From: Candidatus Woesearchaeota archaeon
Lineage (GTDB): Archaea > Nanobdellota > Nanobdellia > Woesearchaeales > GW2011-AR4
DNA length: 52,937 nucleotides
NCBI GenBank assembly: GCA_016181305.1
Contig: JACOZN010000013.1
Coordinates: 79,691-132,627 of the forward strand
Direction of reading: 5' to 3'
The translations under genes were made by a program, and so were the position numbers. The notes under the pieces are model-generated. The model made no database searches and had not been told where the DNA came from. It was given only the letters and a program-made list of their open reading frames with translations. Shown here piece by piece: positions 18,639 to 34,816 of the stretch (its first letter is position 1; the number at the start of each line of letters is the position of its first letter).

Positions 18639-18663
18639 AAGCAATTAGATTAATCCTTTTAAC

Positions 18664-18677
18664 AAAACTTTATAAAC
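18664..18677 (+). promoter_or_regulatory. BRE/TATA promoter of tRNA-Arg
   Basis: AAAACTTTATAAAC, same sequence and spacing as the tRNA-Ile promoter. Confidence 0.7.
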
Positions 18678-18701
18678 CATTTTCTTTATCTTTAATTTAT
18701 T

Positions 18702-18795
18702 GCCCCTGTAGTATAACGGACCAGAACGTGAGGTTGCGGACCTTAAGGTCGGGGTTCAATATGGAGAATGTTCCATGAAATTCCCCGCAGGGGCA
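18702..18795 (+). tRNA. tRNA-Arg(GCG) with a 21-nt non-canonical intron at 59/60 in the TPsiC loop (18761-18781)
   Basis: GCCCCTG/CAGGGGC acceptor; TGAGG-TTGCGGA-CCTTA; CGGGG/CCCCG T stem; perfect BHB (TTCA/TGAA helix, 3-nt bulges ATA and ATT, TGGA/TCCA outer helix). Confidence 0.9.
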
Positions 18796-18798
18796 TTT
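18783..18798 (+). repeat. attL, 16-bp direct repeat CCCCGCAGGGGCATTT
   Basis: Identical to 33836-33851; equals the tRNA 3' end. Confidence 0.92.
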
Positions 18799-18852
18799 GT
18801 TTTTCGGTTAAATGCCGAAACGGGTTTTGGATATTGGTTTTTAGTTGTTGGT

Positions 18853-19944
18853 ATGCAAGAATCTGTTATTGATATCCAAAACTGGAAAGGGAAATACGAA
18901 AGCGAATTAAGGAAAATAGAAGCGTCAGGCATAAGCCAACGAAACAAGGAGCTTATACTTGATTTCAACAGATACTATGTTCTTGAGGGAATCAGCTATT
19001 CCAGAAGAATAAGGGTTATGACTATACTTTGCTCGGTTGCAAGAAAGATTGACAAGGATTTTGACAAAGCAACCAAAGAAGATATAATGAAGTTTGTGGA
19101 ATATCTGGAAACTTCGCAGTATAAGGACTGGACAAAGCATACCTACAAGCAGATTCTAAAAAGGTTCTATAAATGGCTTAAAGGAAATAATACAGAGCAC
19201 CCTCCCGAAATCAAATGGCTAAAAGCTTCAAAAGCAAAGATGGAACATAAAATTCCAGAAGAGCTTATAACAAAGGAAGACGTTGTTATGCTTATACAGA
19301 AAGCCGAAACAATAAGGGACAAGGCATTGATAAGCAGTTTGTTTGAAAGCGGGTGCAGGATTTCTGAATTGGGAAATTTAAGAATAAAGAACGTTGTTTT
19401 TGATCAATACGGAACGGTTATCGTAGTTAGTGGAAAGACTGGAATGCGTAGGGTAAGGTTGATAGATTCAACGCCTTATTTAGCTAACTGGATAGAAAAT
19501 CATCCTTTTAGGGATGAACCCGACAAACCATTATGGGTAAGCACAACCCGAAAAAGAAGCAGTATATGCTATGGCACTATAAGGAAGATGCTTAATGAAA
19601 TCGCACAAAGAGCTGGAATAAAGAAAAGGGTAAATCCCCATATATTCCGCCACAGCAGAAGCACAATAAATGCCAACTTCCTGACCGAAGCACAAATGAA
19701 CAATTACTTTGGATGGGTTCAGGGAAGCAGAATGCCATCTGTTTATGTTCATTTGTCTGGAAGGGATGTTGATGCTACTATAATTAATATGCACAGCCCT
19801 AATCAGAAAGTTGTTATCAACAAAGCATCAGAAAACAATTTTGAGCCAAAGTGCTGTCCAAGATGCAGAAATTCCAATCCAGCAACGAGCAAGTTTTGCA
19901 ATAGGTGTGGGGCTGTTTTGGATTTAAGCAATTTTTCTAATTAA
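18853..19944 (+). CDS. int: Tyrosine recombinase/integrase with C-terminal zinc ribbon
   Basis: SGCRISE (R), SGKTG (K), HIFRH, FGW, SVYVH (Y); CPRC..CNRC. The ORF-track start 18775 lies inside the tRNA, so ATG 18853 is preferred. Confidence 0.93.
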   Translation: MQESVIDIQNWKGKYESELRKIEASGISQRNKELILDFNRYYVLEGISYSRRIRVMTILCSVARKIDKDFDKATKEDIMKFVEYLETSQYKDWTKHTYKQILKRFYKWLKGNNTEHPPEIKWLKASKAKMEHKIPEELITKEDVVMLIQKAETIRDKALISSLFESGCRISELGNLRIKNVVFDQYGTVIVVSGKTGMRRVRLIDSTPYLANWIENHPFRDEPDKPLWVSTTRKRSSICYGTIRKMLNEIAQRAGIKKRVNPHIFRHSRSTINANFLTEAQMNNYFGWVQGSRMPSVYVHLSGRDVDATIINMHSPNQKVVINKASENNFEPKCCPRCRNSNPATSKFCNRCGAVLDLSNFSN

Positions 19945-20007
19945 GTGTGTTTTCAGCCACAAAGCTTTTATAATTATTAACTATATTTTTTAATCTGGTG
20001 ATTTATT

Positions 20008-20547
20008 GTGGTCAAAAAAATAATGATTAGTAGAAAAGGCATTAACATAGGAAATAAAAAAATTGGACATGTTGTTGGACATTTTAATCATATAGAGGGA
20101 TTATTGAAACATTTGCTAACATTTTACATCGAACCTTCTGAAAGAAAAAAGGAATTTGTTGAAGAAATCCTATTGAATAACTCAATACTAAATTTTTCCT
20201 CAAAACTTAAATTATTCTTAAATATTAACCAAGAAGAGAAGTGGTTAAATGGGAGAGAATTAGACGATTTCAAAAAAAATATTTATTTTTTAAGTAATGT
20301 TAGAAATTCTTTTGCCCATGCCGAAACTAGAATTCATATTTATACCGAGCATAGAAAAAATAGAAAACCAAAAATTTACTATGTTGTAGAAAAATTTGAA
20401 AATGACGGCACTTGTGCATGGTATAGTGCTGATGAACTTCTCAAGGAGTTTAACAAGAAGTATATTCCAGTCGAAAATACATTGATTAGAATATTGCATC
20501 AACTTGATAAAAAATTTGGGAATATTATCGAAAGTGCAAGTATTTAG
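20008..20547 (+). CDS. Putative HEPN-domain protein
   Basis: Helical protein with RNSFAH (Rx4H) motif. Confidence 0.6.
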   Translation: MVKKIMISRKGINIGNKKIGHVVGHFNHIEGLLKHLLTFYIEPSERKKEFVEEILLNNSILNFSSKLKLFLNINQEEKWLNGRELDDFKKNIYFLSNVRNSFAHAETRIHIYTEHRKNRKPKIYYVVEKFENDGTCAWYSADELLKEFNKKYIPVENTLIRILHQLDKKFGNIIESASI

Positions 20548-20661
20548 AAGAAGTTCTTTCTTTTTCCTTTTCAAATTTCATTTCAGAAATAGAAACCTTA
20601 TACCAATTTCTTCAATACCTTTAAATACTAGTTTTGTAAGAATAATACATTGGTGGGTGGT

Positions 20662-21033
20662 ATGTCAGATAACAAAGAAATCCATGAATTTGTTAATGGT
20701 GCTTTAAAGCAAATTAAAGATGCTATTCCAGAAGGTTACAAGCTAAACAATCAAATCAACTTTGATATTTCTGTAACCACTTTAACTAGGGCAGATGGTA
20801 AATTTGATATAAAATTAGCTGGATTTGGTATGACTTCAAATAAACAGCAAGTGCATAGAATCAATTTTTCTGTAATAGATGAAAAATCACAAAAGGAGTC
20901 TATTCAAGAAGGAATTAACGCATTTGAACTTTTCATTAAGCAAATAGCTACGGTAGACGCTCAAATGAAAGCACAAAAAGCTAAATCTGCTAAAAAAATA
21001 GCTGTAAAGACAAATGGCAAAAAAGGAAATTAA
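20662..21033 (+). CDS. Hypothetical protein, possibly Trypco2-like
   Basis: EFVNGALKQI...INFDISVT...KLAGFG...VHRINFSV resembles the Trypco2 pattern (by eye). Confidence 0.45.
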   Translation: MSDNKEIHEFVNGALKQIKDAIPEGYKLNNQINFDISVTTLTRADGKFDIKLAGFGMTSNKQQVHRINFSVIDEKSQKESIQEGINAFELFIKQIATVDAQMKAQKAKSAKKIAVKTNGKKGN

Positions 21034-21256
21034 AGTATTTTCGTATGAGCAAGTGTATAAAGAATACTATGTCAGTTTTATAGCGGGTCTTATTGGAGGA
21101 TTATCAGCATTGACATTTAGCTATGTTATTCCATTAGCAATTAAGGGTGATTGGAAAGGGACATTTATAGGTTTTTTAGTATATGTTATAGGTGCTTTAC
21201 TTACTTTTATTGTCGGATTTTCTGTAATAAAGAAAGTTTTTGTTAAAGATGAGTGA
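21014..21256 (+). CDS. Small two-TM membrane protein
   Basis: Two hydrophobic helices; overlaps both neighbours. Confidence 0.6.
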   Translation: MAKKEIKVFSYEQVYKEYYVSFIAGLIGGLSALTFSYVIPLAIKGDWKGTFIGFLVYVIGALLTFIVGFSVIKKVFVKDE

Positions 21257-21527
21257 TGGAGATAAAAGAATAAAAACTGCATTACAAATTTTCATAGCTG
21301 GTGCAGTTATACTTGCATTACTTGGTGCAGGAACAAAGATAATGAATTTTTATACAGAATTTGGGACATCAATACTAATAAGCATAATCTTAACAATCAT
21401 TGCAGAACTTATTGTCATTAGATTTGGTGGAGAATTTCTTAAACAACATCATATTACAATTTGGGGATTTAGAGTTTCAGTATTCTTTATATTGGTGATA
21501 TTAGTTAAATACTTGGTATTAAGTTAA
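21249..21527 (+). CDS. Small three-TM membrane protein
   Basis: Hydrophobic ORF overlapping the upstream gene. Confidence 0.6.
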   Translation: MSDGDKRIKTALQIFIAGAVILALLGAGTKIMNFYTEFGTSILISIILTIIAELIVIRFGGEFLKQHHITIWGFRVSVFFILVILVKYLVLS

Positions 21528-22399
21528 ATTTTATTTTTATTGTCCAGCCATTTCATAAATAATTCTATTATGATGGCATCATAAACCGCTACAGCAGAAA
21601 TTGCCAAAATAAAAATATCCAAAATTTTTAACCAAAACAACCACCAGTTACTTTGCGGACTAAATCTGATAAAAACTTTCGGACTATTAAATTCCCAACT
21701 TTTACTAAATCCTTTAAATATTTGAAAATCTTTTTTGATATCCCCATCAATAATAGTAAAGCAATTTTCATCGCATGTATAGCCATTCAAAAAATCTGAA
21801 TTATAATTAAAATTAAGTTTGTCTAATTTACTTGCACCTTCAATATTTAGCATGTAATAGGAATAGAATGTAGATTTAATATCTGCAATTATCCCAAAAC
21901 TGTAAGGATCGTTGTCTATCATTTTGCTTAAATTTATTGTTAAATATACCATTCCTTCAGATAAATTTACCACATAAGTGTAGTTTAATTTTTCTGGATT
22001 GTAAACACTCCACCTCTTTAATTCAGATATTTTAAAAACAGGGTATCCATAGCTGGCAAGCTCTTTTTCGTTACAATACTCTTTACGTTTTTGGAAAAAA
22101 GTATATATTGATGCAGTGTTGGTTTTATAATCAATACTAACAGATGGTTCACCTATATAAAAACAACTGCTTTTAACGTTAGCTTGATAGGTTGATATTA
22201 AAAACCAATCATAATTCGTGGGATACAGTTTTTCATTATAAATCCAATTTGATGTTATAATATACAGAATAAAAAAACCAAACGCTATACCAAGTAAAAA
22301 TGATATTTTAACCCAATTTATGTCATAATTAGGTTTTTGATTATCTTGGTTCTTCTTGTTAACTTTCTTAATCTGTTTTGTTCTCTTATTAGAAGCCAT
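21524..22399 (-). CDS. Membrane protein with extracytoplasmic domain (N- and C-terminal TM)
   Basis: 291-aa ORF, TM near residues 30-50 and at the C-terminus. Confidence 0.65.
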   Translation of the reverse strand: MASNKRTKQIKKVNKKNQDNQKPNYDINWVKISFLLGIAFGFFILYIITSNWIYNEKLYPTNYDWFLISTYQANVKSSCFYIGEPSVSIDYKTNTASIYTFFQKRKEYCNEKELASYGYPVFKISELKRWSVYNPEKLNYTYVVNLSEGMVYLTINLSKMIDNDPYSFGIIADIKSTFYSYYMLNIEGASKLDKLNFNYNSDFLNGYTCDENCFTIIDGDIKKDFQIFKGFSKSWEFNSPKVFIRFSPQSNWWLFWLKILDIFILAISAVAVYDAIIIELFMKWLDNKNKI

Positions 22400-22558
22400 A
22401 ATGTAGGAAATTGTGGATAAGTTTAAATTACTTATTCTTTTATTTTCGTCCTTCCCATAAGCTGATAATCAAATCTTTTCCAGCAATTCCTTCTTTTTTT
22501 CAAATTTTAGAAGAAACTTTAATAAACTAACTATATACTAAATAGACTGGTGTAAACT

Positions 22559-23476
22559 ATGTATTATAGATTATTGATATTTTTAACAAATGCTGGAGAG
22601 AACGTAGATAAAATTAAACTCAAATTTGGGTTAAAAATAAAAGAAGTTTCAGAAGAGGAAGCAACAGACCTCTACGCCACTTTAGAAAAAACAGATTTGT
22701 ATAGGGCTGGAAAAGAATTATTTATGGATTATCATATAATTAATAGTAAACACAAAGCTTATTACATTACTAAAAGGATTAAAATTTCTGATGAAATTAG
22801 AGACGAAATGTCAAAATTTAATGAATTTGGCAAAATACAAAGACAACTGATAATGGGTTATTTAGATCCATTGATTATTAAATTAAGATTATTTAAAGAA
22901 GGTTATATTGGTTATCATAAATACTATTTTTTTGGAGAAAAAACTAAAAGTTCATTTACAGGGATGACTTCCCCTAATCATATAACAAGAGGCAGTAAAA
23001 TTTATGAATTAAATGATTTGAATGAAATTAAAAGACTTAATAAATTTATTAAAAAAGTTAAGGATTTGCCAAAAGATGGTCAGCTTAAAATAGCTTTAGA
23101 TAATTTTCAACAATCTTATGATTCAGTCAGTATAGAATCTGCATTCTTGAATCTAATGATTGGAATAGAATCATTATTCTCTAAAAGCACCATAGAATTA
23201 TCTTTTAGATTAAAGAGAAATTGTGCAATTTTTTTGGGTAGAACCAAAACAGAATGTTTGGAAATTTACAATAAAATGAAGGAATTATATGATATAAGAA
23301 GTGTTTTAATTCATGGTAAAAAATTTAAGTTAGAGCCAGAACAAGTTTTTATATTAAGAAACTATGTAAGAAAGTCTATATTAGGGTTTATAGAGATTGA
23401 TAGGAATCATGACCAAGTTCTTGATGAACTGGATAAATTAGGATTTGGGGATTATACAAAAATAACAGATAATTAA
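22559..23476 (+). CDS. ApeA-like HEPN domain protein
   Basis: FLNLMIGIESLF...LSFRLKRNCAIFLG...LYDIRSVLIHG (RSx3HG). Confidence 0.8.
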   Translation: MYYRLLIFLTNAGENVDKIKLKFGLKIKEVSEEEATDLYATLEKTDLYRAGKELFMDYHIINSKHKAYYITKRIKISDEIRDEMSKFNEFGKIQRQLIMGYLDPLIIKLRLFKEGYIGYHKYYFFGEKTKSSFTGMTSPNHITRGSKIYELNDLNEIKRLNKFIKKVKDLPKDGQLKIALDNFQQSYDSVSIESAFLNLMIGIESLFSKSTIELSFRLKRNCAIFLGRTKTECLEIYNKMKELYDIRSVLIHGKKFKLEPEQVFILRNYVRKSILGFIEIDRNHDQVLDELDKLGFGDYTKITDN

Positions 23477-23853
23477 ATACTTTTAAGTAATTCCTTCTTT
23501 TTCTTTTCAAACTCTGCTTTAGAAATAGCTCCTTTGTCCTTTAATTCTTTCAATTTTGCTATTTTGGAAGTAGCATCTTCTTGTGGCTTAACTCCATGCT
23601 TATGGGTATCATAAAACATTGCTTTATTGTATGCTTGATACATAGTTCCCCAACCCACAATAAATACAAATACAGCAATGCCAATCCTCCATCCAGTGCC
23701 TAAATTTACTCCAAAAATTCTGGCAAGTGGTCTAAGTAAATCAACCACAAGCCATTTATCAAAAAAGTAAGTTACAACTGCTGAAACTACTAAGAAAATA
23801 CCCACCATCATAGTTTCTTTTTTCTCTTCTGGTGTTGATTCTTTGGTTTTCAT
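23473..23853 (-). CDS. Membrane protein with C-terminal SHOCT domain
   Basis: Two TM plus IAKLKELKDKGAISKAEFEKKKKELL; TGATG coupling at 23851-23855. Confidence 0.8.
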   Translation of the reverse strand: MKTKESTPEEKKETMMVGIFLVVSAVVTYFFDKWLVVDLLRPLARIFGVNLGTGWRIGIAVFVFIVGWGTMYQAYNKAMFYDTHKHGVKPQEDATSKIAKLKELKDKGAISKAEFEKKKKELLKSI

Positions 23854-24482
23854 CAAATCTCCCCTCTTGCTTGCATATCTGCATAATCTGGAAATGCACT
23901 GTAACAATAATATCTGAATGTGCTATCTTCTTTTACATACTCTTCAGGAATATTTTTGCAGACTGTTTTATCATTAGTTTTTTGTGCAAAATTATAATAA
24001 CACTCTTTACGGATATATTTGTTATTACCATATTTAGTTTGACATATTGAAGAAACTGAAGAATCTTTTTTTACTACTGAATATTCTATGTAACATTTTA
24101 TCACATAATCTAAAATAGCAAAATTAACCCATTCATCTCTAATTTTGTAAGTAGTAATGAAAGCGGGGTCATTACTGCTTGTCATTTGATACGACTTTGT
24201 CATTGCATCACAAAACTCTGGATTATTATATTTAATTGCTAAATCAGAATAACAAGCAACAAGTTGATTAGTTTCTGAGTCATAGCAGTCTTCCGCAATA
24301 TCTATTATTTTTTCTTCGCTTAAAGTTTTAGTTTGTTGTTGGATAGAAGTAGAAGCTGTTTTTGTTGATGTAGCTACTTCACTTTTTGATTTTGGCGTAG
24401 TTGTAGTTTTCTCTATTGTTTGTGTTTGAGCACAGCTACTAATCAAAAATAGTGCCAATACAATAAAAATGGTAAGTTTCAT
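23853..24482 (-). CDS. Lipoprotein with Cys-rich helical repeats
   Basis: LISSC lipobox, Thr/Ser linker, repeated CYxxxAxxxNxxxxC units. Confidence 0.7.
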   Translation of the reverse strand: MKLTIFIVLALFLISSCAQTQTIEKTTTTPKSKSEVATSTKTASTSIQQQTKTLSEEKIIDIAEDCYDSETNQLVACYSDLAIKYNNPEFCDAMTKSYQMTSSNDPAFITTYKIRDEWVNFAILDYVIKCYIEYSVVKKDSSVSSICQTKYGNNKYIRKECYYNFAQKTNDKTVCKNIPEEYVKEDSTFRYYCYSAFPDYADMQARGEI

Positions 24483-24568
24483 TGTTGATATGCCCTTATT
24501 AAATTTAATAGTTAACCGATAGGTAATGGATAGGTTTCTATATAAAAAGTTTACTATGAACAGAAGTT

Positions 24569-24829
24569 ATGAGTTGGGAGAAGTATAGTTTTGTGAAATA
24601 TGCACCATTACGCTCTGAAGTTCTAAAAATATTGGATACAGAGAAAACACCAAAAGAGATTAAGGATGAGTTACATAAATCCGATTCCAATGTAGCAAGG
24701 GCATTAAGGGAATTAACTAAAAAAGGGCTTGTCAAGTGTTTAACACCAAAAAGCAAGAAAGGTAAGATTTATGTTTTGACTAAAGAAGGTAGAGAAATAA
24801 GAACTAAACTATTGAAACAAAGTTTATAA
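24569..24829 (+). CDS. Winged-helix (ArsR/MarR-like) transcriptional regulator
   Basis: KTPKEIKDEL...SNVARALRELTKKGLV...KIYVLTKEG. Confidence 0.85.
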   Translation: MSWEKYSFVKYAPLRSEVLKILDTEKTPKEIKDELHKSDSNVARALRELTKKGLVKCLTPKSKKGKIYVLTKEGREIRTKLLKQSL

Positions 24830-24853
24830 ACTTCATAATTTATTCTGTAAAAT

Positions 24854-25030
24854 ATGGACACTCGATTACTTAAAATTCTGGAAGAAGAAACAGCTAAAGA
24901 GAAAGCCAAGAAGAAAAAGAAACCTATATTTGAAGTCAGAAAGGAAAAAAGACTGAATTATTATTTTGGATGGCATAAAGGAAAACCGCTAGAAGAAGGA
25001 AAGACGGAAAAACAAACAAAGCTTGATTAA
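24854..25030 (+). CDS. Small Lys/Glu-rich protein (58 aa, below ORF cutoff)
   Basis: MDTRLLKILEEETAKEKAKKKKKPIFEVRKEKRLNYYFGWHKGKPLEEGKTEKQTKLD*. Confidence 0.45.
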   Translation: MDTRLLKILEEETAKEKAKKKKKPIFEVRKEKRLNYYFGWHKGKPLEEGKTEKQTKLD

Positions 25031-25094
25031 TTTTTTCTAGATTACTTTTTCTCGTTAAATTTATATAAGCGAGCATTAACTAGGTATTGGTAAA

Positions 25095-27224
25095 ATGGTT
25101 GACGAAGAAAGTGGCACAATTCTTAATAAACTAGGAATATTGCCAAAATATGAACTAGTCCACCTAGTTAAAAAAATATACAAAAATGACAAGCAAGGTC
25201 TAATAAATATCATTTATTTAGTAACTTCAAAGAAGATAAGAGAGCCTTTTAATAAAATAAATAATTTTAATGCAGAAACTTTACTAGGACTTCTATCAGA
25301 AACTAAGGATTTGCCTATTGATTTGATTGATGAACTATATTATGAATATAACCAAACAAAGAACCCTTCACTATACTTCTTTGAAATTCTTGATTTTAAA
25401 GAATCTAATTTTTTAAAGTCAGGAGACAAAGATAAAGAAAAGTATTTTATTGACAAAATTAATTACATTAATCCAACTTTGGTTCTTAAAAGCAGACCTC
25501 AATTTAAAAATTTTAGCTTAGGAAGCATACATACAAAATCTAACATTATAGAAATAGAGTTGGATTTTCAGAGTAGAATTGATTATGTTGACCCTAAAAC
25601 TAAATTACCTAAACATATTTACTCTCTACATGAAGGGATAATATGGATTTCCAAAGACCATAAATCAATAGTAATAAAGGTTGATTCTTCGGATGTTAAT
25701 AAGATTTTAGTTAAGATTCTACAAAACTTATTAGAAAGTAAAGTTGTTAAGTTTAATTTAACAAAGGAAATAGTTAATGAAATTTTTCCTTTTGAAACAC
25801 TAAGAAGAGCAGGTTACATTGAGCCAGAATTAGGTGGTAAAAAATTTACTGAAAGAAAAACATTAGCAGATAGGCATTATTCAGACAAAGATGAAAGCAA
25901 AGAAACAGACGAAAGATGTGATAGACTTTATTCGTATCATAAAATTTCTTTAAATGAATTAGAAGTGGGAACAGCTGTAAGTGAAAAAGGAAAAATAACA
26001 CTCAATAGGCACATAAAGAGATCTGAGCTCAAATTATGGTCTCTTACCCTAATAAAAGATATTATTAGACATATGAGCCACTTAAAAAAAGAACAAATGT
26101 CTAAGTATCTTAACGGAATAGACAAAGATTCCATAATAGAACTAGATGAATTAACTACAAGCACCGCAAAGGAAAATTTATGTCATATTGCAGTTGCTGT
26201 AAGTAGCTTGAAAGAAAGCAATGAGGCTCAGATACAGACAAATCTTACTAGTCTTGAATTGTTTAATACTTTGAGTGAATATTTAATTCCAATATTTGAA
26301 CCAAGTTGTGTTGATTGTGGTGAGAATAGTTATACCTGCAATAATTGTGGAGAACTTAATTCTGCAGTCATAAGGAAAGGCTCAATAAAAATAAAATGTG
26401 ATGGATGTCAAAAGGAAATAAATAATTTAGCTGAAGATATAAAATGTCCAAATGATTCGAATCATAAAATTGATGGAACTATAGAAGAGAACGTATCTTT
26501 TTTCTCTACGAAAAAACTTTTTGAACTATTAAATAAACTTTCACGAGTATTAGAAATGGGTTTAAATTTGACTGAAATGGAAATTTTAAAAATTAAAAAT
26601 AGGATTATTTATTACAAACTCTCTAACAATAAAACCCTTTATCTAATGGATATGTTACCTTCATTTGCATCAATAACAAAAATAGATAAGATACCAACAA
26701 ACGTATTAACAACCCAGTTAATAAATTTGAAATATGCAAAAGAGAAATGCAACGTATACAGTGATGTAAACTGTCGGGATTGTATTATTTCTCAAAAAGG
26801 ACTTTGTATTCAAAGATTAGTAGGTAGCTTTACAAAAAATACTAGACTACATAGTCATTGTGGAACTGAGTTTGGCGACATATCTTTTGTAGAGAATGTA
26901 GATGGAAATAATATTACATTGGTAGGCTTAGCAAAATCTGACTTAAAAGTCTATGATAAAATGCTTACGCTTCGAAATGGCAAAGGTTCTAATTTATTTG
27001 CTCAAGCTTATGACGCATTGGCAGATAGCAGAATCAATTTTATAGCAATAATTGCAACAGCGATATTGCATGAAAAACTCAGAGAATCCTTAATACAGAT
27101 TACAAAATGGAACAATAAAAGGATTACTTTTATTGAAAAACCTGAATTAGTTAGGATGGTTTATGATTACATAGAAAAAATAAATCAAGGAAACTCAAAT
27201 TATCATTTTTGGGAAATTGTATAA
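25095..27224 (+). CDS. Large hypothetical protein with Zn-finger cluster and C-terminal restriction-endonuclease-like region
   Basis: CVDC, CNNC, CDGC, CPND..H; C-terminal EFGDISF...VGLAK...IAIIAT...ITFIEKPEL. Confidence 0.55.
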   Translation: MVDEESGTILNKLGILPKYELVHLVKKIYKNDKQGLINIIYLVTSKKIREPFNKINNFNAETLLGLLSETKDLPIDLIDELYYEYNQTKNPSLYFFEILDFKESNFLKSGDKDKEKYFIDKINYINPTLVLKSRPQFKNFSLGSIHTKSNIIEIELDFQSRIDYVDPKTKLPKHIYSLHEGIIWISKDHKSIVIKVDSSDVNKILVKILQNLLESKVVKFNLTKEIVNEIFPFETLRRAGYIEPELGGKKFTERKTLADRHYSDKDESKETDERCDRLYSYHKISLNELEVGTAVSEKGKITLNRHIKRSELKLWSLTLIKDIIRHMSHLKKEQMSKYLNGIDKDSIIELDELTTSTAKENLCHIAVAVSSLKESNEAQIQTNLTSLELFNTLSEYLIPIFEPSCVDCGENSYTCNNCGELNSAVIRKGSIKIKCDGCQKEINNLAEDIKCPNDSNHKIDGTIEENVSFFSTKKLFELLNKLSRVLEMGLNLTEMEILKIKNRIIYYKLSNNKTLYLMDMLPSFASITKIDKIPTNVLTTQLINLKYAKEKCNVYSDVNCRDCIISQKGLCIQRLVGSFTKNTRLHSHCGTEFGDISFVENVDGNNITLVGLAKSDLKVYDKMLTLRNGKGSNLFAQAYDALADSRINFIAIIATAILHEKLRESLIQITKWNNKRITFIEKPELVRMVYDYIEKINQGNSNYHFWEIV

Positions 27225-27423
27225 ATATTTTATGGGTTACTTGTTGAAAAAATTTCTATAAAAACATGGTGCACACGTTTGGCAGACATAGGTAGATAAA
27301 AAATACCCCACCCCCATGAGCAAACTTTTCTCATCGATATACTACAATCCATAGATTATAATCCATTTTATCGACTACGAGTGTGTTTATATACTTCAAT
27401 ACCACTGATTTCTTGGGTTAAAA

Positions 27424-27464
27424 AAAGTTGGCAAAAGTTCCGCTAAAGACCAATTGCCAACTTT
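27424..27464. repeat. 11-bp inverted repeat AAAGTTGGCAA / TTGCCAACTTT with 19-nt spacer
   Basis: 27424-27434 and 27454-27464. Confidence 0.8.
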
Positions 27465-27500
27465 ACCCAATAACAACCACGAATGGAGGTATTAGGTAAA

Positions 27501-27884
27501 ATGGGAACAAAGAAACAGAATATAAAAACTTTGGCATCGAAAGATGCTCAACCAGAAAGAGGTGAGATTGAAAACAGAGTCGTTTTTACCCTATATTGTA
27601 AAGACGTTATTGATGGGATCAAGAAACAACTTGCCAAAAAGCCAATGGCAATGAAACAGGCAGTGGTAGTTTCTTTATTGTTGGTAGATGAACCAACCAG
27701 AAAAGAAATTCTTGAATTGGTCCGGGAAAACAAGAAGTTTGATAAAACATTGGAAGGTTTTATCACAACCAATAAGAAGAAGATAATGGATTTCTTCCAG
27801 AACCAAAAGGACAAGACAAGCACAACAGCTGTTCTAAAACAAAGAATAGCCGAACTCGAGGCACAGGTTGGTGATAAAAAATGA
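27501..27884 (+). CDS. Hypothetical protein with C-terminal coiled coil
   Basis: GGAGGT Shine-Dalgarno at 27485-27490 favours ATG 27501. Confidence 0.65.
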   Translation: MGTKKQNIKTLASKDAQPERGEIENRVVFTLYCKDVIDGIKKQLAKKPMAMKQAVVVSLLLVDEPTRKEILELVRENKKFDKTLEGFITTNKKKIMDFFQNQKDKTSTTAVLKQRIAELEAQVGDKK

Positions 27885-28015
27885 AAGAAACCACCAATTA
27901 CCCCAATTCTTTGGAGCAAGTCCAAGAATTGATGAAGCAACACACCAAAGAAGCTTACCTGAAAAGATTAGCCAAAATTGGTGTAATTGTGAGGGATAAA
28001 AATGACAACCGATAA
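27881..28015 (+). CDS. Small hypothetical protein (44 aa, below ORF cutoff)
   Basis: GGTGAT SD; overlaps both neighbours; MKETTNYPNSLEQVQELMKQHTKEAYLKRLAKIGVIVRDKNDNR*. Confidence 0.55.
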   Translation: MKETTNYPNSLEQVQELMKQHTKEAYLKRLAKIGVIVRDKNDNR

Positions 28016-28232
28016 GTGTGCTTGCGGAAACGACAAAGAAGATTGGATGGAAGTCTGTAAGCAATGCTATGCAAAGAATAAAGGCAACAAACCAACATCA
28101 AAGAACAAAGATAAGGAAATAAAAAGACAAGTTTTCTTAAAAATTGCCAGCGAACAACTGAAATCCCAACAACCAAAGGACTTGGTAAGCTATGCACAAA
28201 GCTTGGAAATTGAATTTAACAAATGGGCTTAA
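28002..28232 (+). CDS. Small Zn-binding, virus-like hypothetical protein
   Basis: CACG...CKQC plus IKRQVFLKIA. Confidence 0.6.
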   Translation: MTTDKCACGNDKEDWMEVCKQCYAKNKGNKPTSKNKDKEIKRQVFLKIASEQLKSQQPKDLVSYAQSLEIEFNKWA

Positions 28233-28307
28233 TTGCCCATTGTTTTTTCTTTTTTGATTTTGATAAGAACAAAAACTATTAAATACCTATGATTAACCCC
28301 ATAATTT

Positions 28308-29021
28308 ATGTTAAAGAAAACCCTAACAGCAATTGCAATAGTAGTATCTATAGTCGCATTTATATTTCTGATAGGTTGGGTAATATCAAGTCTAACTGCT
28401 AATGAATATAAAGATAAAGCAAAGTCTTATGATGACTTACAAAATGAACTTACCCTTTGTCATGGAAATTTGACTCAAAAACAATTACAGTATAATAACT
28501 TACAGAAAGTAAAAGACACGGCTATTGATGCCTTGACTAAAGACAAAACCGAACTAAATAACAATTTACAAAATTTAGGTCAGGAACTTGATTCTTGCAA
28601 CAAAACCCAACAAGGGAAAAATCTGGAGATAGGAAACCTAAAAAATAAATTAACTAACTGTACTTCAAATCAGCCAAATGTGTCCAATAATTGCCCAGTA
28701 GCATTAAGCCCTGCTCCAAGTGATAAAACCATGTTTTTTGGTAGCGTCATGGATGTTTCAACTATAAAAATTATTGGTACAATATCAGTCATAACCCTTA
28801 TAACTTTATTAACAATCCCATTTTCACTTGCATTTACTATTAATTTAAAGATAGGTGTAGTAGTGAGTTGGTTTATTGCAAATGCCCTTACTGTTGCTGT
28901 TCAAATTATTTTAGAAGTAATAGAAGCAGATTTGGATTTTAAAATCAGGTCGTTAATCACAGTTGTAGTGTTCACAGTTATCTTTGCTTTATTTGCTTAT
29001 GCAACAAGAGACTGGGATTAA
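28308..29021 (+). CDS. Coiled-coil membrane protein
   Basis: N-terminal TM, heptad region, three C-terminal TM. Confidence 0.7.
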   Translation: MLKKTLTAIAIVVSIVAFIFLIGWVISSLTANEYKDKAKSYDDLQNELTLCHGNLTQKQLQYNNLQKVKDTAIDALTKDKTELNNNLQNLGQELDSCNKTQQGKNLEIGNLKNKLTNCTSNQPNVSNNCPVALSPAPSDKTMFFGSVMDVSTIKIIGTISVITLITLLTIPFSLAFTINLKIGVVVSWFIANALTVAVQIILEVIEADLDFKIRSLITVVVFTVIFALFAYATRDWD

Positions 29022-29786
29022 TTATTGTTTAAGTACTTCTTTTTCGTTTTCTTTATTTTTTTGAGCTTCGTAGTGTTTCATCAAAGCTTTATTCTCATCA
29101 TCAATATCTTTTTTAGTATAAACAATAGCTTTAATTCTATGAATTCCTGAAGTTAGCAAACTAATATCATGCTTTATACTATCAATACCTTTAGCAATAG
29201 TATGTAGAGGTGGATCTCCCAATTGTTGCAACCCAATCAATTCTGAAAAATCAATCGTGAATTTTTCCTTATAATCATTATCATCTTTATCTTTATAATC
29301 AACCTTAATATCAAAGCTAGATTTGAACTTTTCTTGAGGATTTTCAGCAAGACTGGTAAGAAAGAACTGTAGTTTTTGATTGGGTGCTAAATATTTTATT
29401 CCATTTTTAATAAAGTTCTTATCGGATAACAAATGTCCCTTTTTTAATTCCAAATTTTTACTAATTTCAAACTTAATATCATAAGCTGGTCCAGTTCCTA
29501 TATTCCTTATGACCATATCAATAAAATTAATCCATTCTTCTCTTGGTTGAATTATTATCGATATATTAGGCACCCTTTGTGATTCTCTCATCTGTCTTGT
29601 TTCATCGACAAGTCTCCATGTCAGGATGGAATATGTCAAGCTGGACAGTGCCACAACAGATGTAAATATTAACATCAAAGTTCCACTGTTTTTGTTTAGA
29701 AACTCTGAATATTGCCAACTACTTATAATCAGCACAGCTAACAAAAACAGAATAGTTATGAATATTGATTTATCTTTCATATACAA
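29022..29786 (-). CDS. Membrane-anchored hypothetical protein
   Basis: Two N-terminal TM, then TRQMRESQRVP...IRNIGTGPAYD beta-rich domain. Confidence 0.65.
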   Translation of the reverse strand: MYMKDKSIFITILFLLAVLIISSWQYSEFLNKNSGTLMLIFTSVVALSSLTYSILTWRLVDETRQMRESQRVPNISIIIQPREEWINFIDMVIRNIGTGPAYDIKFEISKNLELKKGHLLSDKNFIKNGIKYLAPNQKLQFFLTSLAENPQEKFKSSFDIKVDYKDKDDNDYKEKFTIDFSELIGLQQLGDPPLHTIAKGIDSIKHDISLLTSGIHRIKAIVYTKKDIDDENKALMKHYEAQKNKENEKEVLKQ

Positions 29787-30263
29787 ATATCAATATTTTG
29801 TCCTTTATAAACGTTATTGGAAAATTTAGCCCATTTTTAGCCAGTCACTAACCCTAATGAAAATGCCTAATTTTGTCTCTTTGGTCTTATAACAAACCCA
29901 AAAAATTGTTCTGTTTTGTAGTCGGTAGTGTTTAAGGCATTTGCTAATCTTTTAAGATAGGTATCATGCCTTAATGTTGTAGAAGCACGGATATTAACCA
30001 CTTTTTATTATTTTAAGCTATTTTTGCCCTCTTTTTCGCTAAATGGTTGAATCATACCACCCTATCGGATATCGTTGAAATTTGGGCGAGATGGCTATAT
30101 TTTCATAGGTAAAATTATCGTTAAAATTTAAGATTTTAGGGAAATCAATTCCTTCACAATTTCAATTTTAAGCTTTTTATGGCATTATTGTCCTATACCA
30201 ATTTTTGACATTAAAATAAATCATACAGGCAAGAATGTCCAATGGTTAAATTATATTGGAAGT

Positions 30264-31451
30264 CTAAAGATATTTGCGAGTTAAGGAAACTAAGAATGCA
30301 CTAGACACTATAATTCCTAAAAATCCTTCAAAAACTGATAGTAACTTAGTTATTCCAACTGGGACTATTTCACCATAACCTATAGTTGTGAATGTAGTAC
30401 CTGAAAAATATAGTGAATCCATAACATCCAAGCCATTAACCAACTCTTCATTAATACTGAAATGTGATATTGGCAGTAAATAAATCAAAGTAAACAAAGA
30501 ATATAATATAATCGCCATAAAAAGAATTCTAATTGGTTTAAGTAAAGCACCAGTAATTCGCAAAATATACTTCAAAAATTTTCTTTTATTCGCTAAAATA
30601 GTTTTATAATATTTTAATTTGTTAAAAATATCTTTGTTATCCCTAATTGTTGTGTTTTTCTCAATGAAATTTATTGTATCAAAAATATAAGAATGAGACA
30701 TATTATCAAGATTTTGTTCTAGGTTTGTTGAATCTCTAAACAAGAATAAATTAAAACCATCTCTTAATTTTAGATATTTCTTGTTTCTTTTATAATCATC
30801 TATCGTGTAATACCCTAAATTTTCATAGTTAATTTGGTTATAATCAAAATAAACCTTTTCAGTTTTTAATTTCACAAATTTTACAAATGAGAAATCGTTA
30901 TCATAAGTCATAAATTGTTGAATAATATTTTCTTCTAATTCGAATTTGAATATACGACTACTGTGGATACCCATGCGTAAAATGCTCGATAATCTTATAT
31001 TCACATCGCTTGCATTTAAACTAATTATTGATAAATCATCAGTTTCAACTAAACGGACTATATTTAGCCTACCCTTGATTATACAGTTATCTAGTGTTAC
31101 ATTTTTAAGATTATTTGTTTTATCCCCTATTGTTAAGTTTCCAAGTATAATACAATTTTTAAATTTTATTTGGATTGAATTTTGTAAAGATATACTACAC
31201 ATTATTACTGAATTTTGAATTTCTACAATTGGTTCGTGATATCTATCCTCACCATCCAATCCCAAATCAGATTTATTGAGTGTTTTAAAATCTGGTCTTG
31301 TTTGAAGTAATTTCTTTAATTGTCCATCAAAATTTTTCTCATAGTCAATTCTATGTTCGGATACTATTTTACTAAGGTATATGGGTAGTTCTTCTTCCAT
31401 TAATTTAGGAAGTAAAGGATTCTTTAAAATTATTTCCTTTTTCTCCTTCAT
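30264..31451 (-). CDS. Two-TM potassium-channel domain protein with N-terminal beta-solenoid-like region
   Basis: SLYFSGTTFTTIGYGEIVP filter and pore helix flanked by TMs; repeated NC(I)IxG units at the N-terminus. Confidence 0.85.
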   Translation of the reverse strand: MKEKKEIILKNPLLPKLMEEELPIYLSKIVSEHRIDYEKNFDGQLKKLLQTRPDFKTLNKSDLGLDGEDRYHEPIVEIQNSVIMCSISLQNSIQIKFKNCIILGNLTIGDKTNNLKNVTLDNCIIKGRLNIVRLVETDDLSIISLNASDVNIRLSSILRMGIHSSRIFKFELEENIIQQFMTYDNDFSFVKFVKLKTEKVYFDYNQINYENLGYYTIDDYKRNKKYLKLRDGFNLFLFRDSTNLEQNLDNMSHSYIFDTINFIEKNTTIRDNKDIFNKLKYYKTILANKRKFLKYILRITGALLKPIRILFMAIILYSLFTLIYLLPISHFSINEELVNGLDVMDSLYFSGTTFTTIGYGEIVPVGITKLLSVFEGFLGIIVSSAFLVSLTRKYL

Positions 31452-31819
31452 TTTTTACTTTCATAATCTTATGTTTTACCATCATCGGAAAACAATCCAA
31501 AGTCAAATTATCTATCCCAACATCTTTTAATTCTCCTTAAAGAAATTCATTTATACAAACGAGGCAGAAGATAGCTACTATTTGGTTTCTGAAAAATTTT
31601 CTGTAGATAAAAGATGAACAAGTCCCTTTTTGTGCGTTATGGTACGAAAAGGCAAAATTAAACGTAAATTGGAGGATTGACACCTTTATAGCGACGAATC
31701 AACAATTTAAGCCAAAAAGTATCACTGCGTGTGGTATCTATAAGGTAGGTATTTGTCTAAACATATACACAAAAATCCCCCTAATTTTCAAGATAAAGTA
31801 TTTATATAACCTCAACCAC

Positions 31820-31833
31820 ATATACATGTATAT
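31820..31833. promoter_or_regulatory. 14-bp perfect palindrome ATATACATGTATAT downstream of a TATA-like TTTATATA (31801-31808)
   Basis: Direct reading; lies upstream of the Sm-like/Pol operon. Confidence 0.5.
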
Positions 31834-31895
31834 AAAAAAAGAAGCAAAAACCTCCAGTTTATTGCTGTTGGTTGCTTTCTTTAGGTATACAAAAT

Positions 31896-32117
31896 ATGTT
31901 TGATAAGCTATTAGGAAAGTCAATAAAGTGCGTTTATGTTGATGGAAACCAGCATAAAGCTATTTCTGGATTACTGAAAGACCAAAGCCCTAGTTTTGTA
32001 ACCATTTTTACGAATCAAGGTCAATATTTCTATGTCAAAGTTCAAGCTATAACAAGCTTGTATGAAAAAATAAGTGTGTTTGGAGGAAAACAAAATGGCG
32101 GAGTTATTCGAAAGTAA
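31896..32117 (+). CDS. Small protein, possible Sm/Hfq-like beta fold
   Basis: LLGKSIKCVY..DG...ISGLL.D.S..FVTI...G..FYVK..AITSL. Confidence 0.45.
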   Translation: MFDKLLGKSIKCVYVDGNQHKAISGLLKDQSPSFVTIFTNQGQYFYVKVQAITSLYEKISVFGGKQNGGVIRK

Positions 32118-33417
32118 AGAAGAAAATTATCAACCTTATACCCAAAATTTCTACAATCCTTTCATTTGGACAAAAAACTATTCAAAGGTTAATGGTATAG
32201 TAGAAGTTCTGTTAAAATTGGAGAAAAGCAGGGTAAGGAGAAATGTCTCAATGTACGTGGTTAATCTTATCCTGAACAATGGCAAAGTAGCAGTCTCGAG
32301 AAGTAAAGGATGGTTTAACAATCACCCAAATTCTAGATGGCATACTTACAGAAGTGCAATAAAATCTCAGGATTTATTGCAAGAATTAGGATTTGTAAAG
32401 ATTAGTAGGGGTTATAGAACTGCGGGATTTAGTAAAGGGTTCAGCTCTACCCTTGAAGTGACTGATAAGTTTAAAGTGGTATTCTTAAAGGAAGACATAA
32501 AGAAAGAGATAATTAGTAGTAGATTAGAAGTTGATGTTAGTAACCTATATGACATATTAGTGGATAGTAATGGTTACAAAGGGGTAGGAAGTGATAGGGA
32601 GAAAGCCATATCTATGGATAATATAGGCAAAGAGATTACTACTGCATTACAGTCCCATTTTCTTAAAAAAGGTTTAGAAGACGCTTTAAGGAACATGTCA
32701 AAACTAAATACAGAGCTTTTCAGTAAAATTACGCTTGGTTTTGATGATGGAAGGGTAACCAACACTATTTCTAATGTTTATCTTACAAGGATATTCAAAG
32801 AAGATGGTTGTGGAAGAATTTACCAGCAATACGCTTCAAGCTACCAACAATTACCAAAAGAAGATCGAAAGCACCTAACTATCAATGGTCTAAAAACTGT
32901 TGAAGTTGATTATTCTAACCTTCATATTAATTTGTTATACCACAAAGTAGACAAGGATAATCCAGTTGAGGATTCTTATATGGCTATTGTTAAGGTATTA
33001 TTAGGAAAACCTGACCCAGAAATTAGAGAAATAATAAAATTATACATTATCATTGCAATCAACGCAAAAAATTTTCGTTCTTCTGTTAGTGCCATGAATT
33101 TAAAACATTCCAAAATGGTTAGGAAATTAAAGGAAAAAAACATTAAATTTAAAGATATTATTAATGCATTTGGTAAGGTTCATCCAGACATACAAAAGTT
33201 TCTTAATAGTAATATTAGCTTTGAATTGATGCTAAAAGACAGCACTATTCTTGAAAATGTTTTATTAAGACTCAATAAAGAGGGCATATTGGGACTCCCC
33301 TTGCATGATAGTATTATTTGCCAAAAAGGGTTTGAAAGAAGAGTTAAGGAAATTATGATAGAAGAGTATAAGAACTACACTAGACTCTCTATAACTGTTA
33401 AAATATCAGCAGAATAA
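32095..33417 (+). CDS. Family-A/T7-like polymerase-related protein (TV-Pol-like), no exonuclease domain
   Basis: GRIY...YQQLP; motif A VEVDYSNLH; motif B REIIK (Rx3K); motif C LPLHDS; GGAGG SD before ATG 32095. Confidence 0.72.
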   Translation: MAELFESKEENYQPYTQNFYNPFIWTKNYSKVNGIVEVLLKLEKSRVRRNVSMYVVNLILNNGKVAVSRSKGWFNNHPNSRWHTYRSAIKSQDLLQELGFVKISRGYRTAGFSKGFSSTLEVTDKFKVVFLKEDIKKEIISSRLEVDVSNLYDILVDSNGYKGVGSDREKAISMDNIGKEITTALQSHFLKKGLEDALRNMSKLNTELFSKITLGFDDGRVTNTISNVYLTRIFKEDGCGRIYQQYASSYQQLPKEDRKHLTINGLKTVEVDYSNLHINLLYHKVDKDNPVEDSYMAIVKVLLGKPDPEIREIIKLYIIIAINAKNFRSSVSAMNLKHSKMVRKLKEKNIKFKDIINAFGKVHPDIQKFLNSNISFELMLKDSTILENVLLRLNKEGILGLPLHDSIICQKGFERRVKEIMIEEYKNYTRLSITVKISAE

Positions 33418-33430
33418 AAGGTGATAAAAC

Positions 33431-33784
33431 ATGCAAGACGAACATAAATTAAACATTTACAACGAGGCTTATGCTTTAAGCTTGGATATTTACAGAAAAA
33501 TAAAGTTTCCTGACAAAGAAAAATTTGGAATGGAACAGCAAATAAGAAGGTCTTCTATGTCCGTTTCTTTAAATATTGCAGAAGCGTGTGGCAAAGATTC
33601 TCAAGCTGACTTTAAAAGATGTTTGTATATCTCTATGGGTAGTTTGAAAGAAACAGAAACACTGATAGATTTTGCCAAAGATTTAAGTTACATTTCTTCT
33701 GGACAGCACAAAGAATTTAAAGACAGAATAACTACATTAGGAAAGCAAATAAACAGCTTAATTCAAAAAATAAAGGAGGGCTAA
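33431..33784 (+). CDS. Four-helix-bundle protein (23S rRNA IVP / Avd-like family)
   Basis: FPDKEKFGMEQQIRRSSMSVSLNIAEACG...SLKETET...DLSYI; GGTGAT SD. Confidence 0.9.
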   Translation: MQDEHKLNIYNEAYALSLDIYRKIKFPDKEKFGMEQQIRRSSMSVSLNIAEACGKDSQADFKRCLYISMGSLKETETLIDFAKDLSYISSGQHKEFKDRITTLGKQINSLIQKIKEG

Positions 33785-33808
33785 CAACCAATAGCCACTA
33801 ACCAACAG
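33781..33808 (+). repeat. Degenerate heptamer tandem (CTAACAA CCAATAG CCACTAA CCAACAG)
   Basis: 7-nt periodicity starting at the stop codon of the four-helix-bundle gene. Confidence 0.55.
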
Positions 33809-33809
33809 C

Positions 33810-33835
33810 TTGGGTTGATTACCAATCAAACCCAA
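33810..33835. repeat. Hairpin TTGGGTTGATT-ACC-AATCAAACCCAA abutting attR
   Basis: 11-bp stem with one bulged A; ends at the base before the att core. Confidence 0.75.
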
Positions 33836-33851
33836 CCCCGCAGGGGCATTT
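33836..33851 (+). repeat. attR, 16-bp direct repeat
   Basis: CCCCGCAGGGGCATTT; overlaps the pirin stop codon (33850-33852). Confidence 0.92.
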
Positions 33852-34557
33852 AACTCATCGGTACTTCAATTAGAAGAATTTTTGAGTCTTTTAACGTTTT
33901 TAAATTGATTTTATTTGTGATGATAATCTCAGCAGAATCACCCTTCTGTAGCTGGTATTTATCAATAGTAATCTCTCCATCAATCACAAAAACACAAATA
34001 CCATGCTTTTGGTTATGAATCTTATACACTACTCTTTTATTTTTGTCAAAATTTCCCATTAAAAAATAAGCATCTTGATGAATGTAAATCATGTCATTAT
34101 TCTTTTTTCCTGAAACAACCTCAACAAGTTCATTTTTCTTCAAATCCAGCCTTTTCTGCTCGTAGCTAGGATTTATGTTTCTTTCTTTTGTCAGAATCCA
34201 AATCTGCAGAAAATGCACTCTTTCCTTGGCTGAGTGATTGAACTCGGAATGCCTTACTCCTGTGCCAGCAGACATTCTTTGTATTTCACCAGCTTTTATT
34301 ATGTCATGATTGCCCATGCTATCACGATGCTCCAGACTTCCTTCATGAACTATAGAAACAATCTCCATGTTGTCATGGAAATGCATGCCAAACCCTTTTC
34401 CCGGCTCGACAATGTCGTCGTTAAGAACTTTTAATAAGCCAAATCCAATTCTTTTTGGATTGTAATAATCGCCAAAGCTGAACGAGTGTTTGCTGTGTAG
34501 CCAGCCAAGCTCTGTTGCACCTCTTTCCTCAGCTTTGTGGATAGTTATCCTAATCAT
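33850..34557 (-). CDS. Pirin family protein (YhhW-like)
   Basis: GWLHSKHSFSF, LNDDIV, FGMHFHDNMEI, LEHRDSMG, QRMSAGTGVRHSE, HFLQIW. Confidence 0.93.
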   Translation of the reverse strand: MIRITIHKAEERGATELGWLHSKHSFSFGDYYNPKRIGFGLLKVLNDDIVEPGKGFGMHFHDNMEIVSIVHEGSLEHRDSMGNHDIIKAGEIQRMSAGTGVRHSEFNHSAKERVHFLQIWILTKERNINPSYEQKRLDLKKNELVEVVSGKKNNDMIYIHQDAYFLMGNFDKNKRVVYKIHNQKHGICVFVIDGEITIDKYQLQKGDSAEIIITNKINLKTLKDSKILLIEVPMS

Positions 34558-34561
34558 AGAA

Positions 34562-34810
34562 TTAGACATAAGCTTTGTCAACATAGCACCATTTCCAGTC
34601 CTGCCCGCTGATTGATTTTATTATGGGGTGCTTTGTTTTCTGGAAATGCTTTGTTGCATGCCTGTTTTTTGAGGAATCGCAGCAGCCAACATGCCCGCAT
34701 GACAAGCACAATCTTAACTCCACCCATTTGTCGCCTCTCTTTAAGCACTCTTCGCATCCGCTAGTTTTCGGCTTGACATCTTTTATTTGAGCTAAATGGC
34801 TGCATTCCAT
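34562..34810 (-). CDS. UBP-type zinc finger protein
   Basis: CSH...CEEC...LRLCLSCGHVGCCDSS...HATKH...WKWCY. Confidence 0.9.
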   Translation of the reverse strand: MECSHLAQIKDVKPKTSGCEECLKRGDKWVELRLCLSCGHVGCCDSSKNRHATKHFQKTKHPIIKSISGQDWKWCYVDKAYV

Positions 34811-34816
34811 AAAAAA

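Follow-up and report, generated by a model that had tools for sequence, protein, structure and literature searches.

In 2008, Iyer, Abhiman and Aravind proposed that TV-Pols without a helicase that accompany lambda-type integrases, resolvases or transposases represent novel bacterial mobile elements, and they predicted TV-Pols to be the primase-polymerases of elements bearing an integrase or resolvase (PMC2579912). Biochemically, the sole precedent shown for a PolA-type primase is CcPol-MP of SCCmec (PMC7581432, PMC10061031). Archaea go unmentioned in both TV-Pol papers, one of which is PMC2579912. Here, we describe a 15,053-bp island inserted at tRNA-Arg(GCG) in a small groundwater archaeon, Candidatus Woesearchaeota archaeon (contig JACOZN010000013.1; the window, meaning the whole stretch of DNA analyzed, is 52,937 nt long), with a tyrosine integrase gene at its left end and a TV-Pol-like polymerase operon at its right end. 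We consider it probable that the island is a cryptic, plasmid-like mobile element that integrated site-specifically into the genome of a DPANN-type archaeon, and that the polymerase operon serves as its replication module. The element is an archaeal version of the type predicted for bacteria. The initial annotation had proposed a candidate new class of archaeal integrative element, which is too strong because such elements were proposed for bacteria in 2008, because CcPol-MP sets a precedent and because archaeal integrative cryptic plasmids are already described.

The element has sharply defined ends. An exact 16-nt direct repeat, CCCCGCAGGGGCATTT, is present in 2 copies in the window, at 18783–18798 (attL core, + strand), where it takes in the final 13 nt of the tRNA and a following TTT, and at 33836–33851 (attR core, + strand), just after a near-perfect hairpin at 33810–33835. 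When up to 2 mismatches are allowed, 0.01 matches are expected by chance, and two copies occurred in 0/100 shuffles. Guanine-cytosine (GC) content between the repeats is 0.303, compared with 0.416 in the left flank and 0.409 in the right flank, and along the window it forms a sharp trough from ~20 kb to 34 kb (0.26–0.34, with about 0.41 to its left and right). In the closest relative, G015, whose flank protein is 95% identical, the site is empty: the tRNA is followed by ~60 nt and then by a nitroreductase gene (window ~35405). Repeat, GC step and empty site thus bear out the clean att ends reported previously. The target tRNA-Arg(GCG) (18702–18797, + strand) is rebuilt at attL, and its displaced copy is left at attR. 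To the left of the tRNA, a 520-aa helicase-like gene is kept in 36/40 genomes of the genus. The segment absent from G015 extends from window position 18798 to ~35400, and the att-bounded 15,053 bp make up most of it; the remaining 1.55 kb, beyond the att repeat and host-like in GC, contain pirin and flavin reductase genes. We treat these 1.55 kb as a separate second indel at a variable tRNA hot spot; a third att copy near 35400 might have accounted for them, and none was found at up to 4 mismatches. The interval 33852–35414 encodes the pirin, an 82-aa open reading frame (ORF) and the flavin reductase, and the pirin occurs in only 1/40 relatives searched.

The integrase is intact, as had been stated in the initial annotation. 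It is a XerA-like tyrosine integrase with a C-terminal zinc ribbon (18853–19944, + strand), encoded in an ORF that is open from 18775; translation most likely starts at M27 (18853), because the first codons of the ORF overlap the tRNA. The protein matches Pfam PF00589 (Phage_integrase; 3.3e-19), phrog_1 (1.8e-25) and Pyrococcus XerA (PDB 4a8e; 7e-20), and its catalytic R-K-H-R-[H/W]-Y set is complete (R195, K221, H289, R292, W314 and Y324).

Three tightly packed genes on the + strand form the operon at the opposite end. The first (31896–32117) encodes a 73-aa beta-rich protein that is Sm/DUF2642-like by a match to PF10842 below the cut-off (8.5e-4). This gene overlaps the start of the polymerase gene, and a 64-aa counterpart (29% identity) holds the same overlapping position before the closest polymerase homologue, in locus L051. 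The second gene (32095–33417), preceded by GGAGG, encodes a protein of 440 aa (447 aa from GTG) that combines a winged helix with a minimal family-A-type polymerase of TV-Pol/divPolA2-like type. The third (33431–33784) encodes a 117-aa four-helix-bundle protein that belongs to the 23S-rRNA-IVP/Avd-like family (PF05635, 3.8e-32; phrog_3206, "Avd protein of DGR," 1.8e-13; DGR, diversity-generating retroelement). Complex prediction for the polymerase with its 73-aa neighbor gave a score of 0.00, which counts neither for nor against binding.

Conserved motifs and a predicted family-A fold both support the earlier description of the enzyme as TV-Pol-like. The polymerase belongs to no Pfam or NCBIfam family and has no real PDB match by sequence or profile, and 92 members of its family are also without a Pfam family. 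It matches phrog_4756 end to end (1.7e-44; protein 10–447, profile 23–439 of 440), and an exhaustive search recovered 4,114 representative clusters at E ≤ 1e-3; the annotated gene context of matches in Paracoccus and in Vibrio phages was uninformative. Conservation was assessed in an alignment of 92 sequences and in another of the 21 closest relatives. Conserved motifs comprise GxGR (R248), ExDYSxxH (D279), DxY (D300), RxxxK (R318 and K322) and HD (H411 and D412). The palm aspartates D279 and D412, on model strands E273–280 and E407–417, are invariant in both alignments; G247 and R248 are also invariant and lie on a model beta-hairpin (E237–242/E245–251). R318 is invariant among the 21 closest relatives and at least 90% conserved among the 92 sequences, and D300 and K322 are at least 90% conserved. 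A conserved histidine (H284) appears to occupy the position of the PolA steric-gate glutamate; whether the product is DNA or RNA cannot be read from sequence.

The AlphaFold2 model of the polymerase (predicted local distance difference test, pLDDT, 88.7; predicted template modeling score, pTM, 0.89) has the PolA/T7-RNAP superfamily fold, is minimal in size, lacks exonuclease domains, and has helical fingers formed by residues 301–402, inserted in the palm. Foldseek returned 133 PDB matches to it at E ≤ 1e-3. Among predicted viral structures (BFVD), the best full-length matches are proteins of ~400–450 aa from Aeromonas, Vibrio and Rheinheimera (barbavirus) phages (E from 1e-23 to 4e-18; TM 0.5–0.7 over ~440–490 columns), while the Zamilon virophage replication protein reaches only E = 3.5e-5, the same level as ordinary PolA. 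As modeled, the protein has all of the structural features described by Iyer et al. We retain the name TV-Pol/divPolA2-like because profile comparison, which covered Ma-LMM01, gave no direct link to a named TV-Pol.

Comparison with the bacterial elements shows extensive likeness together with a few clear differences. Like the TV-Pols of bacterial elements, this polymerase has a minimal PolA/T7-RNAP-like core with a beta-hairpin arginine, two palm aspartates, a fingers aspartate and RxxxK, and it carries an extra N-terminal domain and no exonuclease; like those elements, the island links polymerase to recombinase, encodes no helicase and is compositionally distinct. Unlike them, it resides in an archaeal host, the recombinases here are XerA-like or of archaeal SSV type, and the N-terminal domain is a winged helix rather than the all-helical domain predicted in PMC2579912. 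The divPolA2 proteins of barbaviruses and of Vibrio and Aeromonas phages (PMC11348598; phrog_4756) are similar in size (~400–450 aa) and in having an N-terminal globular domain in place of the canonical thumb/exo part. The best full-length structural matches include the "DNA polymerase" of Rheinheimera phage Barba31A, tblastn matches occur in Vibrio phages, and the phage hosts in common suggest that phrog_4756 is divPolA2. However, the phage proteins are found in tailed phages of 80–140 kb that also have a regular polymerase, whereas here the protein is the sole polymerase of a 5–15-kb archaeal integrative element. Finally, CcPol-MP-Cch2 of SCCmec and the PolA-SSB primases of Bacillota (PMC7581432, PMC10061031) likewise place a family-A-type polymerase with a small beta-rich operon partner on an integrative element. 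In contrast to the present enzyme, CcPol is close to housekeeping Pol I; it has an always co-operonic helicase and large serine recombinases, neither of which is found here, and its partner, an OB-fold SSB subunit, is encoded downstream, whereas the small neighbor here is encoded upstream and is Sm/DUF2642-like by a weak match (8.5e-4).

A conceptual likeness to pipolins, with a family-A-type enzyme instead, was also proposed in the initial annotation. Pipolins and the integrative pRN-type plasmids of Sulfolobales (pXZ1 and pSSVi) are tRNA-integrating, capsid-less and self-replicating, and they combine a tyrosine or SSV-type integrase with a primer-independent polymerase or primase. Pipolins replicate with piPolB, a family-B enzyme, and pRN plasmids with an AEP primase-helicase. 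Cryptic plasmids of archaea that integrate by an SSV-type integrase, among them pXZ1 and pSSVi, are an established kind. The present island is similarly an integrative, capsid-less tRNA element, but its replicase would be PolA-like and it has no helicase: the only polymerase of the element has a family-A fold, and no PolB match was obtained in Pfam or PHROGs.

Related loci link the polymerase repeatedly to integrases, a co-occurrence that had been set beforehand as a test of the proposal, which the proposal withstands. Close homologues of the polymerase (35–48% identity) are found in archaeal and Nanoarchaeota metagenome-assembled genomes and in metagenomes, and we compared eleven polymerase loci. 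An integrase accompanies the polymerase in L007 to L009, L010, L044, L058 and L059, and these include three complete tRNA-bounded elements of 5.0–6.8 kb; five other loci are too short or have no visible integrase. L007, with L008 and L009 the same, is a 6,774-bp element bounded by a perfect 69-bp tRNA-Phe repeat (77–145 and 6851–6919), and its SSV-type integrase is split by integration, with a 381-codon frame restored across the circular junction. L010 is a 5,789-bp element with a 45-bp repeat (7750/13539) and an SSV-type integrase, and L059 is an element of ~5.0 kb with a 16-bp repeat (99/5097) beside a tRNA-like gene and with an SSV-type integrase and an adjoining serine resolvase. L058 also has an SSV-type integrase and is cut by its contig, and in L044, whose borders are not defined, a lambda-type integrase lies 250 bp from the polymerase near tRNA-Ser. 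Apart from the recombinase(s), L007, L010 and L059 each contain no large gene other than TV-Pol. As side observations, three independent assemblies break at the att repeat of the tRNA-Phe element, L008 and L009 starting at the repeat, and in L010 and L059 the Int(N) and Int(C) fragments stand at opposite ends with TV-Pol inside.

Gene content beyond the polymerase varies among these loci. Only three genes recur between elements: the polymerase, the Avd-like gene (in L052) and an 86-aa winged helix-turn-helix (wHTH) gene, which lies near TV-Pol in L011 and L044. This is what would be expected of a portable replication module with variable cargo. Distribution is sporadic: the polymerase is present in 3/400 genomes of the phylum and was not found in other genomes of the same genus, for which 40 were drawn and the polymerase search itself covered 24. 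For pattern searches the 92-row alignment was too diverse, and a single narrow pattern from the 21-row alignment recovered 4 genome loci. It is conceivable, at somewhat less than even chances, that the island and its 5–7-kb relatives form an undescribed archaeal (DPANN) integrative replicon family whose sole replicase is a helicase-less, winged-helix-fused, family-A-type primase-polymerase, possibly with Sm-like and Avd-like subunits. The literature searched yielded no description of a PolA-like replicase in mobile DNA of archaea. The plasmids and viruses known from archaea rely for replication on family-B polymerases, AEP primase-polymerases, or Rep or MCM proteins. Such a replicon family would contain the first PolA-superfamily replicase of the archaeal mobilome and would add a third independent way in which small integrative elements replicate without a primer, next to piPolB and the AEP PrimPols. 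With sizes of 5–15 kb, clean att sites and DPANN hosts whose mobile DNA is poorly known, these elements would also offer a compact test system for priming by the TV-Pol/divPolA2 family, which numbers more than 4,000 sequence clusters and has seen almost no biochemistry.

We propose the following route for propagation of the element. Integration itself and its borders are shown, and the XerA-like integrase would have recombined the 16-bp core common to the element and the 3′ end of tRNA-Arg(GCG). The right-end operon would then act as a replication module composed of the Sm-like protein, the winged-helix polymerase of minimal family-A type and the Avd-like helical protein: after excision, the N-terminal winged helix of the polymerase may bind element sequence, and the TV-Pol-type core may prime the circle, copy it or both, as CcPol-MP does for SCCmec. 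Unwinding would be left to host factors or strand displacement because the element encodes no P-loop ATPase. The ~11 kb between the ends would be variable cargo that encodes two Rx4H proteins, a 709-aa orphan and a wHTH regulator in addition to a K+ channel and membrane and secreted proteins. Polymerase activity, priming and the accessory roles of the two small partner proteins are suggested by conserved motifs, gene order, the CcPol-MP precedent and the recurrence of the Avd-like neighbor.

Several observations weigh against an autonomously replicating plasmid-like element. The polymerase profile (A1) gave no match to the TV-Pol phage Ma-LMM01. Neither origin-like iterons nor strong tandem repeats were found in the element, and it lacks a helicase, whereas CcPol and many TV-Pols are helicase-linked. 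Phage divPolA2 genes have variable neighborhoods in phages that already carry a replicative PolB (PMC11348598), and therefore the family is not always the main replicase. About 12/20 ORFs of the element are without assignable function, and virion proteins could hide among them. Finally, the comparison of coverage and the circular attP joint suggested in the initial annotation did not turn out in favor of an excised form: in Logan contigs, depth is 12.7 over the element and 13–14.6 over its flanks, i.e., approximately equal, and neither an attP nor an attB joint was seen in the Logan contigs of 4 runs, which drop rare variants.

The source samples indicate a largely chromosomal state. The element is present at ≥99% identity in four runs of one groundwater study and in two runs of an older one, and a 15.9-kb Logan contig bridges attR into the pirin gene. 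In the samples examined the element is mostly integrated, at about one copy per chromosome, and rare excised forms are compatible with the contig data. With no more than 22 nt on one of its sides, a candidate joint, "skips 9011," is probably spurious. Separately, in run X2 the Logan unitigs break, with a 30-nt overlap, in or after the attR core (33844–33873), where the contig of another run continues through; the break could stem from a minority variant, either an empty site or a different strain.

A single copy per chromosome would also suit an island that does not replicate at all and on which the Sm-like/PolA-like/Avd-like operon is cargo, a nucleic-acid-synthesis system for defense or counter-defense by analogy with RT-Avd (RT, reverse transcriptase) pairs. 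The company kept by the polymerase lends this explanation some support. The Avd-like gene is adjacent to TV-Pol in the window element and a homologue lies 1 kb from it in L052, even though about a fifth of the genomes of the phylum carry a member of the family; DUF5131 accompanies the polymerase in both L052 and L011, joined in L052 by MazE; and phage divPolA2 proteins are extra polymerases, sometimes paralogues, with variable neighborhoods (PMC11348598). However, in the 5–7-kb elements the polymerase is the only candidate for an autonomous function besides recombination, PADLOC gives no match, and most related loci are without an Avd-like gene. We regard a cargo system as distinctly improbable.

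The recurrence of the Avd-like gene is of interest for a plasmid-like element as well. Genes of the 23S-rRNA-IVP/Avd-like family are present in 82/400 phylum genomes, mostly in one copy and often near contig ends (the tally includes the unpublished genomes G404, G293, G440 and G292). Because the family occurs in only about one-fifth of the genomes, two adjacencies among eleven loci are unlikely by chance, and the recurrent neighbor hints that, outside DGRs, members of the 23S-rRNA-IVP family may serve as polymerase accessories. We also considered whether the Avd-like gene marks a DGR here, and rejected this: no ORF matches RVT, and there is no long near-identical pair of template and variable repeats in 17500–35500. 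A gene for DUF5131 (phage Gp37/Gp68-like) adjoins TV-Pol in two loci that are not related, L011 (5023–5688) and L052 (1587–2303), with 36% identity between the two proteins, and it may possibly encode a further partner of the polymerase family.

Searches of Pfam, PHROGs, NCBIfam and PADLOC gave no ORF of the element a match to a capsid, portal, terminase, helicase, Rep, relaxase or VirB4 protein, and the ORFs of at least 40 aa all lack a Walker A motif. Helicase, Rep, major capsid protein, terminase and VirB4 had already gone unrecognized in the initial annotation, and the check for capsid and packaging proteins that it called for, made by profiles, leaves that picture unchanged in Pfam, PHROGs and NCBIfam; structure prediction covered the polymerase and the 709-aa protein, whose model (pLDDT 37.5) is unusable. 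Of the cargo described there as defense-like and membrane-associated, the membrane proteins are confirmed. The defense reading is not, since PADLOC, Pfam and NCBIfam gave no match and only two Rx4H motifs speak for it.

Starting from the integrase, four co-oriented genes (20008–21527, + strand) encode proteins of 179 aa (with Rx4H), 127 aa, 80 aa (two transmembrane, TM, segments) and 95 aa (three TM segments), none of which has a match in Pfam, PHROGs, PADLOC or NCBIfam. They are followed by a 291-aa protein with hydrophobic N- and C-terminal segments by hydropathy and no family match (21524–22399, – strand); a 305-aa protein with an Rx4H motif (22559–23476, + strand; phrog_28161, 1.1e-09; no PADLOC match); a 144-aa SHOCT-domain membrane protein (PF09851, 1.6e-09) together with a 209-aa Cys-rich protein with a lipoprotein-like signal (23473–24482, – strand); and the 86-aa winged-helix regulator (24569–24829, + strand; HTH_27 and HTH_34 at 1e-06, phrog_2440 at 5e-10). 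The 709-aa multi-Cys protein (25095–27224, + strand) matches no family, has one homologue, P0159 (38% identity), in an unrelated gene context, and was modeled with AlphaFold2 together with that single homologue. Four small co-oriented genes (27483–29021, + strand) with weak, sub-threshold matches encode proteins of 133 aa, 44 aa, 76 aa (Cys pairs) and 237 aa (coiled coil, 4–5 TM segments). Next come a 254-aa protein that has two TM segments at its N-terminus and belongs to a family known from phages (29022–29786, – strand; phrog_11802, 7e-20 over the full length), and a 395-aa protein with a C-terminal K+-channel pore (30264–31451, – strand; PF07885 Ion_trans_2, 4.6e-15, residues 319–392). A protein-atlas search with the 709-aa and 254-aa proteins found clusters of hypothetical proteins only.

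Some of this cargo could be read as that of a provirus, from a spindle-shaped, pleomorphic or other membrane-containing archaeal virus, with virion proteins that profiles do not recognize and TV-Pol as the viral replicase. The 80- and 95-aa proteins, with two and three TM segments, resemble fusellovirus-type capsid proteins in size and hydropathy, the 291-, 237- and 209-aa proteins are further membrane-anchored or secreted candidates, and three ORFs fall in PHROG families (phrog_11802 at 7e-20, phrog_28161 and phrog_4756). To our knowledge, structural proteins of archaeal viruses are often undetectable by sequence. However, no morphogenesis-like gene is common to any related TV-Pol element, relatives of 5.0–6.8 kb leave little space for a virion module, the element has no P-loop ATPase, and a scan of IMG/VR with one narrow subfamily pattern found no relative of the polymerase. 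On balance a provirus seems unlikely, if the least implausible of the alternatives considered here.

The combination of its own integrase and polymerase with no transfer or packaging genes found also fits a satellite or hitch-hiker whose transfer relies on a helper virus, vesicles or contact between DPANN and host cells, with TV-Pol amplifying the element after induction. Small Sulfolobus plasmids with SSV integrases, pSSVi and pSSVx, are packaged by helper fuselloviruses. No helper, cos/pac-like site or capsid-interference gene was identified here, though, and the data do not separate such a satellite from a plain integrative plasmid; we give it only a slight probability.

The target tRNA-Arg(GCG) is itself unusual. 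ARAGORN and Rfam miss it in the window because of a T-loop insert of ~21 nt, and ARAGORN calls tRNA-Arg(gcg) once 18–23 nt around 18757–18782 are removed. The insert is native to the genus, in whose other members tRNA-Arg(GCG) carries a T-loop insert, an anticodon-loop intron or the two combined. The gene is thus intron-polymorphic within the genus: the window copy has the T-loop insert only, G015 the anticodon-loop intron only and G014 both, and T-loop inserts of differing sequence occur in other relatives (loci L019, L021, L023, L031, L034 and L035 were compared). The att core lies entirely 3′ of the T-loop insert. Rfam also places a second tRNA, 117 nt in length and evidently intron-bearing, at window 12743–12859, where ARAGORN reports none.

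The helicase-like gene in the left flank shows a further peculiarity. Its 520-aa Hel308-like ORF (17076–18638) has only Helicase_C and archaeal helicase domain 4, without the RecA1 half. In some relatives (G052, G009 and G041), the two halves of the Hel308-like query match ~1.5 kb apart within one frame of 1041–1056 aa, and this split match suggests an intein-like or other in-frame insertion.

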